Made by a program: the position numbers and the translations under genes. The notes under the pieces were generated by a model. The model saw nothing but the letters and a program-made list of their open reading frames with translations, had not been told where the DNA came from and made no database searches. From Candidatus Hadarchaeales archaeon (GTDB lineage Archaea > Hadarchaeota > Hadarchaeia > Hadarchaeales > Hadarchaeaceae): a stretch of DNA of 10,982 nt. The stretch spans positions 1-10,982 of the forward strand of contig JAVZGN010000026.1 of assembly GCA_038872135.1 (NCBI GenBank), in the 5' to 3' direction. Of this stretch, positions 5,010 to 10,982 are shown one piece after another (within the stretch, counting starts at the first letter, position 1; each line of letters begins with the position of its first letter).

Positions 5010-5365
5010 CCAATTTCTAAAGCTTGCGGCCATCTAACACCGGTTGATTCTGCCGGAGGCCACTGCTATTGGGGTCCGACTAAGCCATGCAAGTCATAGG
5101 GCCTCGGGGCAACCCGAGGTACCTGGCGCACGGCTCAGTAACACGTCGTCAACCTACCCTAGGGACGGGGATAACCTCGGGAAACTGAGGATAATACCCG
5201 ATGGGCGAGGGAAGCTGGAATGCTCCTTCGTCGAAAGGCCGAAAGGCGCCCTAGGATGGGACGGCGGCCTATCAGCTAGTTGGTGGTGTAACGGACCACC
5301 AAGGCTACGACGGGTACGGGCGACGAGAGTCGGAGCCCGGAGATGGGGACTGAGACAAGGCCCCA

Positions 5366-5396
<31 letters not shown>

Positions 5397-5782
5397 CCGC
5401 AATGCGCGAAAGCGTGACGGGGGGACCCCAAGTGCCGCTGGCCTTTGGTCGGCGGCTTTTGCCAAGTCTAAAAAGCTTGGCGAATAAGGGCTGGGTAAGT
5501 CGGGTGCCAGCCGCCGCGGTAATACCCGCAGCCCAAGTGGTGGCCACGTTTATTGGGCCTAAAGCGCTCGTAGCCGGATCGGTGAGTTCCTCGTGAAATC
5601 GACCAGAAGACTGGTCGGCGCGCGGGGAATACCACCGGTCTAGAGGCCGGGAGACGCCGAGGGTACTCCGGGGGGAGCGGTGAAATGCTGTAATCCTCGG
5701 GGGACCACCAGTGGCGAAAGCGCTCGGCGAGAACGGGCCTGACGGTGAGGGGCGAAGGCTAGGGGAGCGAACGGGATTAGAT

Positions 5783-6700
5783 ACTACAAAGTGTCCCCCT
5801 CGGTAGCGATACCGAGGTGCGCACCCAACTATATCGGTGGAACCTCGTCTTGCACGGGCGAGGCAACACCGAGGGAAGTCGCTTAAAGCGACCCCGTAGA
5901 GACTAGAGCGCGTGGAGGTGATAGAAGATGGTGAACCCATCTTTGTCCGAAAGCGTGCGGGCAGTGGTGTTAGGCAGCATACTTGGCGATGGCAGTCTGA
6001 GAAAGTTCAAAAATTACGAAAACGCGCGGTTTTGTTTCAGACACTCACTAAAGCAGAGAGAATACTTTCTGTGGAAAGTCTCGCTACTGAAAGAAATCTC
6101 GGATGAGAACTGCTGGCGCGAACAGCCGCCAGACGGGTGGAGCAAGACTCCAAAGCTACACTACTGTAGCAAGGCGCTGCCAGAGCTCACGAAACTGTAC
6201 GAGCTGACACATAAGAAGGGCAAGTTAGAAGTTAGAAGAAAGTGGCTCAACATGATGACGCCATTGTCGCTGGCAATACTCTGGTTTGACGACGGTTCCA
6301 TAATAGGCAACGGGCGCAAAGGGGTCCTCTGCACTGACAATGTGCCACTCAGAGGACAACTTGTGTTTTGTAAATACCTGCGCAAAGTATGGGGCATCAA
6401 AGCCAGAGTCGGGAGAAAAAGAAAAGGTAGCGATGTCTACAGAGTATGGATACGCTCCGCCGAAAGTCTCAAAAAACTTCTCCGCATCGTGATGCCATTC
6501 GCCAAGGTTGAGTCAGTACTGCCGAAGCTGCTACTACTATACAAGGACGCACGCGCTCAAAAACGTTGGGTCTCTGAAGTGTCTGCTACCACGGGATTTC
6601 CCGAAGAGGTAGTGTGGAAATACCTCAACGAGAAGAAATCCCGGTGGCGTGGCTTCAGAGAATGATATAGTCCTACCCTCACGGCGACGTGAGAAGGTTG
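5783..6700 (+). mobile_element. group I intron (IA-like, with P7.1) after 16S U793 (E. coli numbering), 918 nt
   Basis: P1 5780-5785/5790-5795 with U5782.G5793 at the splice site. P2 5798-5817 (GCGA loop). P3 5823-5829/6565-6571. P4 5834-5839/5867-5872. P5 5843-5850/5856-5863. P6/P6a 5873-5895. P7 GACTA 5901-5905/TAGTC 6668-6672. P7.1 5906-5914/6550-6558. P8 6572-6580/6652-6660. P9 6678-6693 (GCGA loop). Terminal G6700. Confidence 0.95.
5928..6665 (+). CDS. intron-encoded LAGLIDADG homing endonuclease (two motifs, I-SceI/LAGLIDADG_2-like)
   Basis: Motif 1 VVLGSILGDGSL, then HSLKQREYFLWK; motif 2 TPLSLAILWFDDGS; CTD motif. SD GGAGGTGAT (5914-5922) matches this genome's anti-SD. Confidence 0.92.
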   Translation: MVNPSLSESVRAVVLGSILGDGSLRKFKNYENARFCFRHSLKQREYFLWKVSLLKEISDENCWREQPPDGWSKTPKLHYCSKALPELTKLYELTHKKGKLEVRRKWLNMMTPLSLAILWFDDGSIIGNGRKGVLCTDNVPLRGQLVFCKYLRKVWGIKARVGRKRKGSDVYRVWIRSAESLKKLLRIVMPFAKVESVLPKLLLLYKDARAQKRWVSEVSATTGFPEEVVWKYLNEKKSRWRGFRE

Positions 6701-7273
6701 ACCCCGGTAGTCCTAGCTGTAAAGGATGCGGGCCAGATGTCGGGTGCTCTTAGAGGGCATCCGGTGTCGGAGGGAAGCCGTTAAGCCCGCCGCCTGGGAA
6801 GTACGGCCGCAAGGCTGAAACTTAAAGAAATTGGCGGGGGAGCACCACAAGGGGTGGGACCTGCGGTTCAATTGGATTCAACGCCGGAAAACTCACCTGG
6901 GGCGACTGCTGGATGAAAGCCAGGCTGACGACCTTGCTGGACTAGCAGAGAGGTGGTGCATGGCCGTCGTCAGCTCGTACCGTGAGGCGTCCTGTCAAGT
7001 CAGGCAACGAGCGAGACCCTCGCCCCTAGTTGCCATCGGTGGGAAGCCGGGCACTCTAGGGGGACCGCTGGCGCTAAGCCAGAGGAAGGAGAGGGCGACG
7101 GTAGGTCAGTATGCCCCGAATCCCCAGGGCCACACGCGGGTCACAATGCGCGGGACAATGGGACGCAACCCCGTGAGGGGAAGCCAATCCCCTAAACCCG
7201 CGCCCAGTTCGGATCGGGGGCTGCAACTCGTCCCCGTGAAGCTGGAATCCCTAGTAATCGCGGGCCAACACCC

Positions 7274-7316
<43 letters not shown>

Positions 7317-7386
7317 GCCACTCGAGTGGGGTTCGAGTGAGGCCTGCTCTTCTTGGGCGGGTCGAACTCTAGCTCCGCAAGAGGGG

Positions 7387-7425
<39 letters not shown>

Positions 7426-7438
7426 CGATCACCTCCTA

Positions 7439-7465: not shown

Positions 7466-7537
7466 GGGCCTGTAGCTCAGTGGCAGAGCGCTGGCTTTGC
7501 AAGCCAGAGGTCGCGGGTTCAAATCCCGCCAGGTCCA
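7466..7537 (+). tRNA. tRNA-Ala (TGC), 16S-23S spacer
   Basis: Acceptor stem GGGCCTG/CAGGTCC with G3.U70. Anticodon arm CTGGC-TTTGCAA-GCCAG, anticodon 7498-7500. T arm GCGGG-TTCAAAT-CCCGC. CCA not encoded; no intron. Confidence 0.97.
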
Positions 7538-8144
7538 TACCATCAAAAGATGCGGTGCTTGAAGTCACCTTCATGCACTAAGGGCATATTGCGCTCAAGC
7601 GCAAGATGATTGCCGTGCACAGGTTGCGCCAGGCAAGCTGGGTAGAAGAACAGGGAACCCACCTGGGGGATGGCTTGGCTCCAGCGCCGAGGAAGGTCGT
7701 GGCAAGCGGCGAAACGCCCAGGGTAGGCGCATGCAGCCTTTGATCCTGGGATTGCCGAATGGGACCTCCTGCTAGGGAAAAACCCTGGCGCTCGCGGCAG
7801 CGAGCGGGAACCCCGGGAACGGAAACATCTTAGTACCGGGAGGAGAAGAAAGCAACTGCGATGCCCTGAGTAACGGCGAGTGAAAAGGGCAGAGGGCAAA
7901 CCGAACCTGGTGGCGAAAGTCACTGGGGATGTGGAGTTGCAGGACTCTCCTCAATCTCTCGCGCGGGAAGCCGAAGTCGGCTGGAAAGCCGCACCTCAGA
8001 GGGTGAAAGTCCCGTAGGTGTAACTGCGCAGGGTATGAGGGAGAGGATCCTGAGTAGGGCGCCTTGGAAATGGCGTCTGAAGCTGGGAGGCATCAACTCC
8101 CAACCCTAAATACTGCTGGAGACCGATAGCGGACGCAGTACCGC

Positions 8145-8195
<51 letters not shown>

Positions 8196-9683
8196 AGGTG
8201 GGGATAGTAGGACATGGCTCGAAAGAGTTGATTTCTCCCGAAGGAGGCCGTCGCGAGACGGCGTTACGAGGGAGAAGGATCAGGGTCATGTCGTCCGTCT
8301 AGAATCACGGGCCAGGGAGTTTCGTGCCGTGGCGAGGCTAAGGAGTCTTATCTCCGGAGCCGGAGCGAAAGCAAAAGGTCCGCAGCCCGAAAGGGTGAGG
8401 GACTGGGTGTTAACAGCGCCCGGAGTCACGGCGCGAATACCCGAAACCGGGCGATCTAGTCCGGGGTAGGCTGAAGCCGAGCGTATGCTCGGTGGAGGGC
8501 CGAACCGGTCTTGATGTGCAATTCGGTCGGATGACCCTGGGCTAGTGGCGAAAGATCCATCAAGCCCGGTGACAGCTGGTTCCCTCCGAAGCTGGCCGCA
8601 GTCAGGCCCAGCGCGAGGTAGCCAGCGGTGTAGAGCACCGATTGGGGGAAGCTGGGGGGAAACCCTCACTCTCCCTGTCGAACTCCGAAGCCGCTGGCGC
8701 CGTAGACCGCTGGAGACGGGGTGCGGGGGGTAAGCTTCCGCTCCGAGAGGGAAACAACCCAGACCGGGGTTAAGGCCCCAAAATGCCGGCTAAGTGTAGA
8801 AATCCAAAGGGCGTCTTCTTCCTCAGACAGCGGGAAGGTAGGCTCAGAAGCAGCCATCCTCTAAGCAACGCGTAAAAGCGGACCCGTCGAGGGAGGAGGC
8901 CCCGAAGATTCACGGGACTAAGCCGGCTGCCGAGACCCCGGGGAGGCCGAAGGTTAGTAGGCCTATCCGGTAGGAGGGCGTCCGGCGCGGGGAGAAGCTC
9001 GGCCGTGAGGTCGGGTGGACCGCGTTGGAATGAGGATCCTGGTGGTAGTAGCAGCAGAGCCGGGTGAGAATCCCGGCCACCGAAGGGGCTCGGGTTCCCA
9101 GGCAATGTTGATCAGCCTGGGGTTAGCCGGTCCTAAGGGCGTCCTCAACCAGAGACGCTCGAAAGGGAATCCTGTTAACATTCAGGAGCCGCCCAGGTAC
9201 CTGCGGCAACGCAAGCCTGCTTCCTGACGCTTCGGGATAGGCCGAGTGGGGCCGTCGCTCCATCTAACCTCTCAAGCCCGGGGAGTTCCGTAATGGAGAG
9301 AACCGGGTGAAGGAGGGAATGGCCTGCCGTATGGTGGGTTCGGCCGATTCCTGGAGCCCGTGAAAAGGGAGGCGGGAAATGGGATCCTGGGTGACCGTAC
9401 CTAGAACCGACACAGGTGCCCCTGGGTGAGAAGCCCAAGGTGCATCGGGAGACACCGGGCCAGGGAATTCGGCAAGTTGGCCCCGTAGCTTCGGTAGAAG
9501 GGGTGCCTGCCCAGCAGTGGGCAGGTCGCAGTGACAAGGGGGCTACGACTGTTTAATAAAAACGTAGCATCCCGCGAGTCCGAAAGGATGAGTACGGGAT
9601 GTGAATCCTGCCCAGTGGCGGTACGTGAAAACCCGGTCCAACGGGCAGAAGCGCCGCCAAACGGCGGGGGTAACTATAACCCT

Positions 9684-10530
9684 CGAGTAAGGGGGTTGTA
9701 AAACCCTGCTATATGCGGGGAAAACTAGAGGTGCAGACTACTCACATGAGTAACAATGTCTGCATCGGTGAGGTTGACCCGCAGGAAACCCCTATGACAG
9801 AAAAACCGTAAATATGCCGAGTTCCTCTTCTTAAAAGAGGAAACAACATGTCATTGGCATACCTGGTAGGTCTCATGCTTGGGGACGGTGGAGTTTACGG
9901 GAATACCTATACAGTTTTCTGCAGGGACAGGGATAAAGAATTCGTGGAATCCTGCGCGAGGATGGTCAAAGAGTTGTTTGACATACAACCAAAGGTTCAC
10001 AGGGTTGCTGTGAACTGCTGGGCTACAAGCACAAACCGGCGGGACATTCACCAATACTTTTGTAAAATTGGATATCCAAAAGGACGAAAGTTGACCACCG
10101 CTAAGATTCCAGCGGTATTTCTGGAGAAGAGCAGCGATAGAATCGATGTTTTAAAAGGGCTTTTTGATGCGGAAGGATATTGCGGAGTCGATAGACAAAA
10201 GCATGGGGACAAAATTTACGAGTATCCCTACGTCGGCTTAGACATGATTGCGAGGCCGATCGTCAAAGAAGTTCAAAAGATTCTGAGAGAACTGGGGATA
10301 GAAAGCAATGTTCTAGTGAAGAGACCTCGTGCTAGAGGAAAACATCCGCAATGGTCGGTGTTGATCAAAGGAAAAGATAGAGTCCAGAAGTTTGCGCAGA
10401 CACTTGGATTCAGGCATCCAGTAAAATTTGTCCGACTGAAAGAAATCCTTGAGGGGGATCCTCAGAGACCATACGCAGGGCATCCGAAAGGATGATGATA
10501 TGGTCCACCTTTTCCTAATGGAAAAGGGTG
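9684..10530 (+). mobile_element. group I intron (IB-like, no P2, no P7.1) after 23S U1923, 847 nt
   Basis: P1 9675-9684/9691-9700 with U9683.G9692. P10 9688-9691/10531-10534. P3 CCCTGC 9704-9709/GCAGGG 10475-10480. P4 9714-9719/9778-9783. P5 extension 9730-9766. P6 9784-9786/10459-10461, P6a 9789-9793/10452-10456. P7 GACCA 10467-10471/TGGTC 10501-10505. P8 10481-10494 (GAAA loop). P9 10508-10527. Terminal G10530. Confidence 0.95.
9848..10495 (+). CDS. intron-encoded LAGLIDADG homing endonuclease (two motifs, intein/archaeal DOD-like)
   Basis: Motif 1 AYLVGLMLGDGG; KGRKLTTAKIP; motif 2 VLKGLFDAEGY; LRELGIES; FAQTLGFRHPVK. SD-like GAGGA at 9837-9841. Inserted in the P6 loop. Confidence 0.92.
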   Translation: MSLAYLVGLMLGDGGVYGNTYTVFCRDRDKEFVESCARMVKELFDIQPKVHRVAVNCWATSTNRRDIHQYFCKIGYPKGRKLTTAKIPAVFLEKSSDRIDVLKGLFDAEGYCGVDRQKHGDKIYEYPYVGLDMIARPIVKEVQKILRELGIESNVLVKRPRARGKHPQWSVLIKGKDRVQKFAQTLGFRHPVKFVRLKEILEGDPQRPYAGHPKG

Positions 10531-10545
10531 CTTAAGGTAGCGTAA

Positions 10546-10577
<32 letters not shown>

Positions 10578-10982
10578 GGGATCAACGATAGCCCCACTGT
10601 CCCGGTCCGGAACCCGGTGAACCCGCTTGCCGGCGAACATGCCGGGGATCCCCGAAGGGAAACGAAGACCCCGTGGACCTTTACTGCAGCCTGTCGTTGG
10701 GGCGCGGCTGTGGGTGCAGAGCGTAGGCGGGAGCCTTCGAAGCAGGGTCTTCGGGCCCTGTGGAGGCGTCAATGTAACACCGCCCTCTTGCGGCTACGTT
10801 TCTAACCTCGAAAGGGGGACAGCGGCAGGTGGGCAGTTTCGCTGGGGCGGCAGTCCCTCGAAAAGGTAACAAGGGAGCCCAAAGGTCGGCTCAGGCGGGT
10901 CAGAACTCCGCCGTGGAGGGCAAGGCCATAAGCCGGCCTGACTGTGAGCTCACCACCAAGGCTCGCAGGGGCGAAAGCCGGG

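Follow-up and report, generated by a model that had tools for sequence, protein, structure and literature searches.

The window analysed here is the whole of contig JAVZGN010000026.1 (G000:C26; 10,982 nucleotides), part of a 1.08 Mb, 91%-complete archaeal assembly (GCA_038872135.1) from a Candidatus Hadarchaeales archaeon. Our subject is an 847-nt insertion in its 23S rRNA gene, the only 23S gene found in the assembly, which is very probably a mobile group I intron carrying a homing-endonuclease gene. The host gene, the insertion and the open reading frame (ORF) inside it are arranged as follows:

7642-10982, + strand: host 23S rRNA gene, delimited with the Rfam archaeal large-subunit (LSU) rRNA model; the contig end cuts the gene at model position 2480 of 2987
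9684..10530, + strand: group I intron as read here, 847 nt, within the 3' strand of helix 69, with U1923 (E. coli numbering) as the last exon base before it; placed by the excess over the LSU model, by covariation and by uninterrupted relatives
9848..10495, + strand: predicted homing-endonuclease gene, 215 aa, double-motif LAGLIDADG, beginning in L6 and ending in P8

Against the 5 consensus nt of the archaeal LSU model (positions 2027/2033), the window has 852 nt between GGGGGUAACUAUAACCCUC and GUAGCG, and the insertion therefore amounts to 847 nt, from 9684 to 10530. Its excision leaves ...TAACTATAACCCT|CTTAAGGTAGC..., identical to the uninterrupted sequence of relatives (L012, L013), and intron-less relatives read continuously through the 1923 region as TAACTATAACCCTCTTAAGGTAGC. 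At the DNA level the boundary can be shifted by one C; only the placement at 9684-10530 gives a U before the 5' splice site together with a G at the intron end. We take the U preceding the insertion to be U1923, from the E. coli helix 69 sequence with its pseudouridines at 1911, 1915 and 1917, and this numbering fits because an intron in another genome of the phylum (G015) interrupts the classic 1931 site, GGU|AGCG, 8 nt downstream. As a bridge element, helix 69 is essential. No other large insertion is present in the part of the 23S gene contained in the window (3341 nt = 2480 model positions + 847 + 14), and neither a second 23S copy nor a further 23S piece was found in the 91%-complete assembly, from which the final ~500 nt of the gene are absent. 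The contig end (10982) places positions 2500 and 2593, known archaeal sites of IA3 introns, outside view; four relatives with complete 3' parts of the 23S gene have no further large inserts.

The fold was evaluated in an alignment of seven homologous introns, comprising that of the window and those of six genomes among 40 relatives, all at the same site and 69-76% identical. Its paired regions (P) in the window, with the loops (L) and joining segments (J) named after them, are these:

9677-9683 (5' exon UAACCCU) with 9692-9698 (guide GGGGUUG), + strand: P1, 7/7 pairs in 7/7 sequences
9688-9691 (guide UAAG) with 10531-10534 (3' exon CUUA), + strand: P10, 4 bp in the window
9704-9709 (CCCUGC) with 10475-10480 (GCAGGG), + strand: P3, spanning the ORF; 2 of 6 pairs changed on both sides
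9715-9719 with 9778-9782, + strand: P4, enclosing the extended P5/P5a
9730-9766, + strand: P5/P5a, with a conserved GUAACAA bulge; covarying pairs 7/9 in P5 and 2/3 in P5a
9784-9792 (GGA..CCCC) with 10453-10461, + strand: P6/P6a, spanning the ORF; two compensatory C-G to U-A changes, 100% of cells paired
10467..10505, + strand: catalytic core P7-P3'-P8-J8/7-P7'
10467-10472 (GACCAU) with 10500-10505 (AUGGUC), + strand: P7, 1 compensatory pair
10481-10494, + strand: P8 hairpin, 3 compensatory pairs
10508-10527, + strand: P9 hairpin, 3 of 8 pairs covarying
10530, + strand: terminal guanosine, the intron-final G in 7/7 homologues

Across the seven introns the 60 proposed pairs give 417 cells, of which 92.8% are paired, compared with 36-54.5% when the partners are slid by 1-3 columns, and 21 of the 60 have changed on both sides, a number matched in none of 500 shuffles. 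At least one compensatory change is found in every helix except P4 and P10, that is, in P1, P3, P5, P5a, P6, P7, P8 and P9; the covarying helices thus include the long-range P3 and P6, whose pairs bridge an ORF of ~660 nt. P3, P4, P6, P7 and P8 are paired in 100% of cells. P4 is invariant among the seven and shows a G-C to U-A change once the more distant intron of G042, described below, is added. The U9683.G9692 wobble at the 5' splice site is likewise invariant (7/7), and one exon/guide pair of P1, A-U in six sequences, is G-C in G001, whose exon itself differs. J3/4 reads UAUAU and J8/7 reads AUGAU; P2 is absent, and no element separates P7 from P3'. The core helices thus follow one another in the canonical group I order, P3-P4-P5-P6-P7-P3'-P8-P7', and include the P3/P7 pseudoknot. 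In G001, a member of the same genus (L009, G001:C3), the helix 69 loop is UAACUCUGACCCU as against UAACUAUAACCCU, with the guide sequence changed to match; two DNA runs from hot springs contain the intron-less form of this variant exon, as loose ends.

Two covariance models, representing the 5' and 3' halves of the intron family, match the position-1931 intron of G015 with 38.2 bits (E 4.4e-9) and 45.9 bits (E 3.4e-11). That intron scores 53.6 bits with the general Rfam model Intron_gpI, above its gathering score of 50, and the window intron is therefore homologous to a recognised group I intron. The G015 intron (L015:128-539, G015:C10) is 412 nt long and has no long ORF by eye; its core sequence visibly resembles that of the window intron. 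Since it lacks P2 and occupies the same site as archaeal IB4 introns (PMC6125680), the window intron is most likely a P2-less, IB4-like element, by analogy with those at archaeal LSU/1923 and LSU/1931 in Nawrocki et al.

The ORF reads through P6', P7 and P3' to a stop codon at 10493-10495, in the 3' strand of P8, so that its final ~10 codons overlap P7, P3' and P8. Its product matches Pfam LAGLIDADG_3 in two stretches (62.8 bits, cut-off 22.5; E 3.6e-17), and the motif-ending pairs D13-G14 and E109-G110 keep their acidic residues in at least 90% of 30 relatives. In sequence and predicted structure it agrees with a LAGLIDADG homing endonuclease as defined by two such helices, each closing with an acidic residue and a Gly, and by two copies of the alpha-beta-beta-alpha-beta-beta-alpha fold. 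An AlphaFold model of the nuclease has a mean predicted local distance difference test score (pLDDT) of 92.5 and a predicted template-modelling score (pTM) of 0.87, with residues 206-215 disordered. These are the residues encoded by the codons that overlap P7, P3' and P8, and because homologues read the tail in different frames, it is probably dictated by the RNA and not by any need of the protein. The best Foldseek match is I-Tsp061I (E 5.6e-14, template-modelling (TM) score 0.72), followed by the intein endonucleases PI-PfuI and TliVMA and by I-DmoI, with I-Tsp061I, PI-PfuI and I-DmoI all at E ≤1e-8; the matches also include bI3, a LAGLIDADG maturase, and I-AniI, which acts both as a nuclease and in splicing. 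I-Tsp061I (PDB 2dch) and I-DmoI, both of which are encoded in protein-spliced (bulge-helix-bulge, BHB) introns, are the closest solved structures and share the monomeric two-motif fold, but identity is only ~18% and their target sites are other ones. By sequence, the sole clear match in the PDB is I-Tsp061I (phmmer E 3.9e-5), and I-CeuI (2ex5) is not among the eight PDB sequence matches at E ≤1. I-CeuI has a single LAGLIDADG motif. With two motifs and no I-CeuI match, the window nuclease is, judged from its sequence, not a member of the I-CeuI family.

The nuclease gene is under purifying selection. Its frame is open in all seven homologues; variable columns make up 55%, 39% and 96% of codon positions 1, 2 and 3; and the ratio of non-synonymous to synonymous substitution rates (dN/dS) is 0.04-0.16 in the six of 21 pairs for which dS is unsaturated, synonymous sites being saturated in the other 15. 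The proportion of synonymous differences between homologues (pS) is 0.60-0.94. The family is small: a word-indexed search returned 24 close proteins, and among 1.84 billion representative proteins there are 3 relatives at E 1e-30, 38 at 1e-10 and 832 at 1e-3. There is no meaningful kinship with the nuclease of a second intron in the 16S gene of the same contig (E 0.046), nor with two proteins encoded at the same 23S region in other genomes, the ORF of a helix-69-loop insert in G024 (E 0.026) and the nuclease of G042 (E 0.35). Ahead of the ORF start, at 9820-9847, a potential hairpin (UUCCUCUU/AAGAGGAA) would cover a GAGG Shine-Dalgarno-like motif, and six relatives have a conserved GUCCCUCUUAA block before the ORF (alignment columns ~170-185); these features may control translation of the nuclease or make a tertiary contact.

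A preliminary description of the window had placed an insertion at 9684-10530 whose removal restores the junction, with a group I fold comprising P1/P10, P3-P9, the U.G wobble and a terminal G. The LSU model, with its 847-nt excess at exactly these bounds, the match to uninterrupted relatives and the covariation of seven introns bear this out, just as the LSU model alignment between U1923 and C1924 agrees with the position named there, and the nuclease with which it credited the intron is a LAGLIDADG_3 protein whose frame is open in every homologue. Its outline of the architecture stands in part: the lack of P2 and P7.1, the extended P5 and an ORF starting in L6 are all seen, but the ORF is not confined to L6, running as it does through P6', P7 and P3' to P8.

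Sixty-six genomes of the phylum are present in our collection, of which 29 have this region of the 23S gene assembled. The position-1923 intron occurs in 10 of the 29, as a full homologue in nine (G000, the window's own genome, with G001, G007, G025, G029, G030, G037, G058 and G060) and in a further form in G042. The exon halves abut, giving an uninterrupted 1923 junction, in 15 genomes, and the remaining four are G015, with its 1931 intron, G024, with an insert in the helix 69 loop, and G034 and G039, which are unassigned. G058 and G060 were identified as homologues from half-model matches alone and stand outside the covariation alignment and the trees. A scan of genome contigs with the window nuclease gave no match, and one with the topoisomerase I encoded on the same contig gave archaeal matches of only 37-47% (DPANN, Bathyarchaeota, Methanosarcinales and Thermoplasmatota), none of them close. 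Beyond the genome collection, metagenome loci were retrieved with an alignment of 16 nuclease sequences, a scan with a single protein having given no matches. Eighteen loci with relatives of the nuclease were obtained; the 5' half of the ribozyme lies upstream of the nuclease in all 18 and the 3' half downstream in 17, the exception being cut by a contig end. In six metagenome loci (L117-L121 and L131; ~1885-2240) a second, weaker match of both half-models (42 and 30 bits) follows directly on the position-1923 intron, suggesting a short intron without an ORF at 1931, in tandem with it.

Intron and exon trees are in conflict. With the intron data, neither the host clade {G037, G025, G029} (approximately unbiased (AU) test, p 4.5e-53) nor the same-genus pair {window, G001} (AU p 0.002) can be upheld; with the exon data, the same is true of the clade {window, G037, G030} from the intron tree (p 1.5e-4). 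The intron has therefore been mobile. Taken with the selected nuclease gene, this conflict indicates that the intron was transferred horizontally or replaced more than once, as homing would lead one to expect, and the intact and selected nuclease, the patchy presence of the intron and the discordant trees suggest active homing.

The intron of G042 (L110:189-907, G042:C4) has a ribozyme homologous to that of the window and a different nuclease. Its ORF (L110:312-872) encodes a single-motif LAGLIDADG protein of 186 aa, matching I-OnuI-type halves at ~1e-40, 3e54 at 3.8e-28 and I-CeuI (2ex5) at 2.1e-18, and on these sequence comparisons it looks like a replacement of the nuclease gene within one intron lineage. 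The more general proposition is that a single position-1923 ribozyme lineage in one archaeal phylum has swapped its nuclease, carrying mostly the small, dedicated double-motif LAGLIDADG_3 family and, in G042, an I-CeuI/I-OnuI-type enzyme; this is a tentative proposal that may well prove wrong. If both nucleases cut the 1923 junction, the double-motif family would represent an independent, and probably thermostable, solution to recognition of the I-CeuI site. Were the proposal true, that family would also fall in a protein type seen elsewhere in archaeal protein-spliced introns and inteins, and would bear on the proposal that protein-spliced introns descend from group I introns.

The events at this locus can be set out as a sequence of putative steps. 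On folding of the pre-rRNA, the end of the 5' exon, UAACCCU, and the internal guide GGGGUUG would form P1 with the U.G pair at the cleavage site; an external guanosine held in P7 would attack after U9683; P10 (UAAG/CUUA) would recruit the 3' exon; the guanosine site would then be occupied by the terminal G10530; and ligation of the exons would restore helix 69. If the nuclease acts as the LAGLIDADG enzymes of other introns do, 23S genes without the intron would be cleaved across the 1923 junction, and their repair on an intron-bearing template would install the intron, completing homing. Self-splicing, an active endonuclease with this target and current mobility are what we would expect of such an element.

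Public sequencing runs were consulted for both junctions. Contigs from a DNA run cross them without differences (records 2 and 3, spanning 9611-9802 and 9790-10560), although this run is possibly the source sample and so not independent. Intron-bearing contigs also occur in an RNA run at a depth of 10-38, which is no proof of transcription or splicing. A joint from 9683 to 10531, skipping exactly 847 nt, is found in one contig each in two DNA runs and one RNA run, with 21-25 letters on one side. These joints were considered as splicing products or as an empty allele of the window organism, a reading that was dropped in view of the short overlap and, in the RNA contig, the 11 differences over 177 nt; they are probably intron-less 23S genes or rRNAs of other organisms, the RNA joint deriving from an intron-less relative.

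Several results weigh against a mobile, self-splicing group I intron. With Intron_gpI (RF00028) the window is matched at 10337-10526 with 25.9 bits (E 2.5e-4), below the gathering score of 50 bits. The aligned part is the P7-P3'-P8-P7'-P9 core, and the 5' half of the alignment falls wrongly in the ORF; as the model cannot span the ORF, its correct alignment is confined to the 3' core. Two of the six relatives' introns match this model at E ≤1 (32.8 and 20.5 bits) and none reaches 50. The covariation set is small, with seven related sequences only, and P10 is weak, two of its four pairs holding in all seven sequences, with 78.6% of cells paired and mostly 3 bp in the homologues. The joint in the RNA run has 21 letters on one side, in the contig with 11 differences over 177 nt, and does not directly evidence splicing. 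The clade {window, G037, G030} was chosen after the intron tree had been seen, and the scan for BHB motifs reported below was limited to the strict 3-4-3 form.

One alternative is that the insertion is a decayed group I relic, removed or cut by host RNases to leave a fragmented 23S rRNA like that of bacterial intervening sequences, or that its splicing depends wholly on a maturase. In its favour, the public runs gave no usable spliced joint of this organism, P10 is short, the ORF invades the core, and the bI3 maturase and I-AniI stand among the structural matches of the nuclease. Yet the pairing of P1, P3, P6, P7 and P8 has been kept by compensation while the synonymous sites of the ORF are saturated (the pS range given above), which argues for long selection on the ribozyme fold; the U.G pair and terminal G are invariant; and helix 69 is essential, with no second 23S copy in the assembly to supply it. 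We consider a relic or a wholly maturase-dependent intron unlikely.

Another alternative is an archaeal BHB intron, which the tRNA-splicing endonuclease would excise and a ligase would seal, as in the LAGLIDADG-bearing rRNA introns of Thermoproteales and Desulfurococcus. In its favour, the host is archaeal; the nearest solved relatives of the nuclease, I-Tsp061I and I-DmoI, are archaeal and intron-encoded according to their PDB titles; and in G024 an insert in the helix 69 loop has a LAGLIDADG ORF and no group I signal. Against this, the strict motif (3-nt bulges and a 4-bp helix) is present at neither junction register in any of the seven homologues, the best case forming 3 of the 4 central pairs, flanked on its two sides by helices of 0 and 0-1 bp. 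Every group I helix is present and covarying, and sequence conservation lies in the P3-P9 core and not in a junction helix. A BHB intron was dropped on the grounds that the strict 3-4-3 motif is missing from all seven homologues and covarying group I helices are present, and it is very improbable. The insert of G024 itself (L016:612-1259, G024:C8) is ~648 nt long, follows GGGGGUA in the helix 69 loop and contains a LAGLIDADG ORF of 157 aa; it gives no group I signal with Rfam or the half-models and may be a protein-spliced (BHB) intron. Slightly downstream in the same genome (L016:1286-1319) there is a 34-nt mini-insert flanked by a GCGUAA repeat.

That a bacterial or organellar intron was misjoined or carried as a contaminant into an archaeal rRNA contig, as might be suspected of a metagenome-assembled contig ending inside its 23S gene and of rRNA operons, which are often misassembled, is scarcely credible, and the chimera at the junctions for which the preliminary description had allowed is not borne out, given homologous introns at the identical site in nine other genomes of the phylum and 18 metagenome contigs, DNA-run contigs that span both junctions without differences (from what is possibly the source sample), and a guide that fits the archaeal exon and has changed in step with it in G001.

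A group I intron at this site in an archaeon has precedent. Nawrocki, Jones and Eddy (2018) reported 39 group I introns from archaea, of which ten lie at LSU/1923 and sixteen at LSU/1931, with IB4 as the best-matching model in each case; 21 of the 39 contain LAGLIDADG_1, _2 or _3 ORFs, some archaea have several introns per rRNA operon, and RF00028 gave no archaeal matches (PMC6125680). Archaeal LSU/1923 introns were thus already catalogued, and the window intron adds to a known set (IB4.7,.9,.11,.13,.17,.18,.20,.21,.28 and others; PMC6125680), with which it shares an archaeal 23S host and the site. Those introns are ~250-1130 nt long with a LAGLIDADG ORF in about half, a description that the window intron fits, and in both cases the general Rfam model fails where structure-aware analysis succeeds. 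Co-occurring rRNA introns, including a tandem of 1923 and 1931 (KP308720.1, PMC6125680), likewise have their counterpart in the six metagenome loci above. The window's host phylum, however, is not listed for 1923, Hadesarchaea being tabulated with IA3 introns at LSU/2500 only (PMC6125680). A literature search on Hadarchaeota and Hadesarchaea, in which supplements lay outside the search, found no paper describing a position-1923 intron in the phylum, and Hadarchaeota is probably a new host phylum for LSU/1923 group I introns.

Outside the Archaea, two comparisons are informative. The preliminary description had equated the insertion site with that of I-CeuI, and this agrees with an excerpt of PMC3315327 stating that I-CeuI cleaves the n.1923 LSU target site of Chlamydomonas eugametos chloroplast DNA. 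The chloroplast LSU intron, as the same excerpt presents it, resembles that of the window in its rDNA position, 1923, and in combining a group I intron with a LAGLIDADG gene; I-CeuI is described there as an asymmetric homodimeric LAGLIDADG homing endonuclease (LHE), whereas the window nuclease has two motifs, belongs to LAGLIDADG_3 and gives no I-CeuI match at E ≤1. The second comparison is with the L1917 and L1931 group I introns of Synechococcus, Thermotoga and Simkania (Haugen et al. 2007). As set out in the excerpted text of PMC1995217, these also lack P2, have a complex P5 and an ORF extending from P6 through P7, P3 and P8, and lie in the same helix 69-71 region of the 23S rRNA, but they differ from the window intron in having bacterial hosts and single-motif nucleases and in their positions, 1917 and 1931 instead of 1923.

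The current understanding of introns is left unchanged by these results. What they add is a fold proved by comparison, a probable new host phylum for the site, evidence of lateral movement and, as a tentative reading, a nuclease swap within one ribozyme lineage; LSU/1923 elements have on this evidence moved between hot-spring archaeal lineages and would be able to exchange their nuclease genes. For annotation, rRNA introns of this kind break pipelines based on 16S and 23S sequences, and the ORFs inside them are to be read as homing endonucleases and not as hypothetical proteins. The nuclease, being compact and with a universally conserved rDNA site as its predicted target, is possibly of interest to meganuclease engineers.

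The 23S gene is preceded in the same operon by a 16S gene that is also interrupted. The relevant features are:

5037-7437: 16S rRNA gene
5783-6700: 16S group I intron, 918 nt, after the U of GGAUUAGAU and ending in G
5928-6665: ORF of the 16S intron, 245 aa, LAGLIDADG_2, between P7 and P3'
7466-7537: tRNA, probably tRNA-Ala by an eye reading

We take the site of the 16S insertion to be about E. coli 793, from the numbering of the 785F primer. Rfam gave no group I match for this insertion at E ≤10. Its elements are P1, a P2 hairpin, P3 (CCCAAC/GUUGGG), P4-P6, P7 (GACUA/UAGUC), a long P8 and P9, and in four homologues 99.1% of cells are paired, compared with at most 38.8% when partners are slid, with 17 of 54 pairs covarying. 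On this fold the preliminary description was right to count two group I introns in the operon. It was right, too, that their architectures are unlike, the 16S intron having a P2 and an ORF between P7 and P3', and its suggestion of independent acquisition agrees with their differing distributions. Among the 21 genomes with the 16S region, the intron is present in five (G000, G024, G012 in part, G029 and G039), the exons abut in 15 and one is unclear. Of 40 relatives screened for the two introns, G024, G012, G029 and G039 have that of the 16S gene and G037, G030, G025, G001, G007 and G029 that of the 23S gene, so that only G029 and the window genome (G000) possess the two together. The ~793 site may be unlisted for archaea, because the archaeal small-subunit (SSU) group I introns tabulated by Nawrocki et al. 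(2018) are at position 1498 only (PMC6125680); a search of the literature since 2019 on archaeal 16S group I introns found nothing relevant. Before the rRNA operon the contig carries four protein genes, which by Pfam encode a topoisomerase I, a ParA/MinD-type ATPase, an ArsR-type regulator and a CitMHS transporter.

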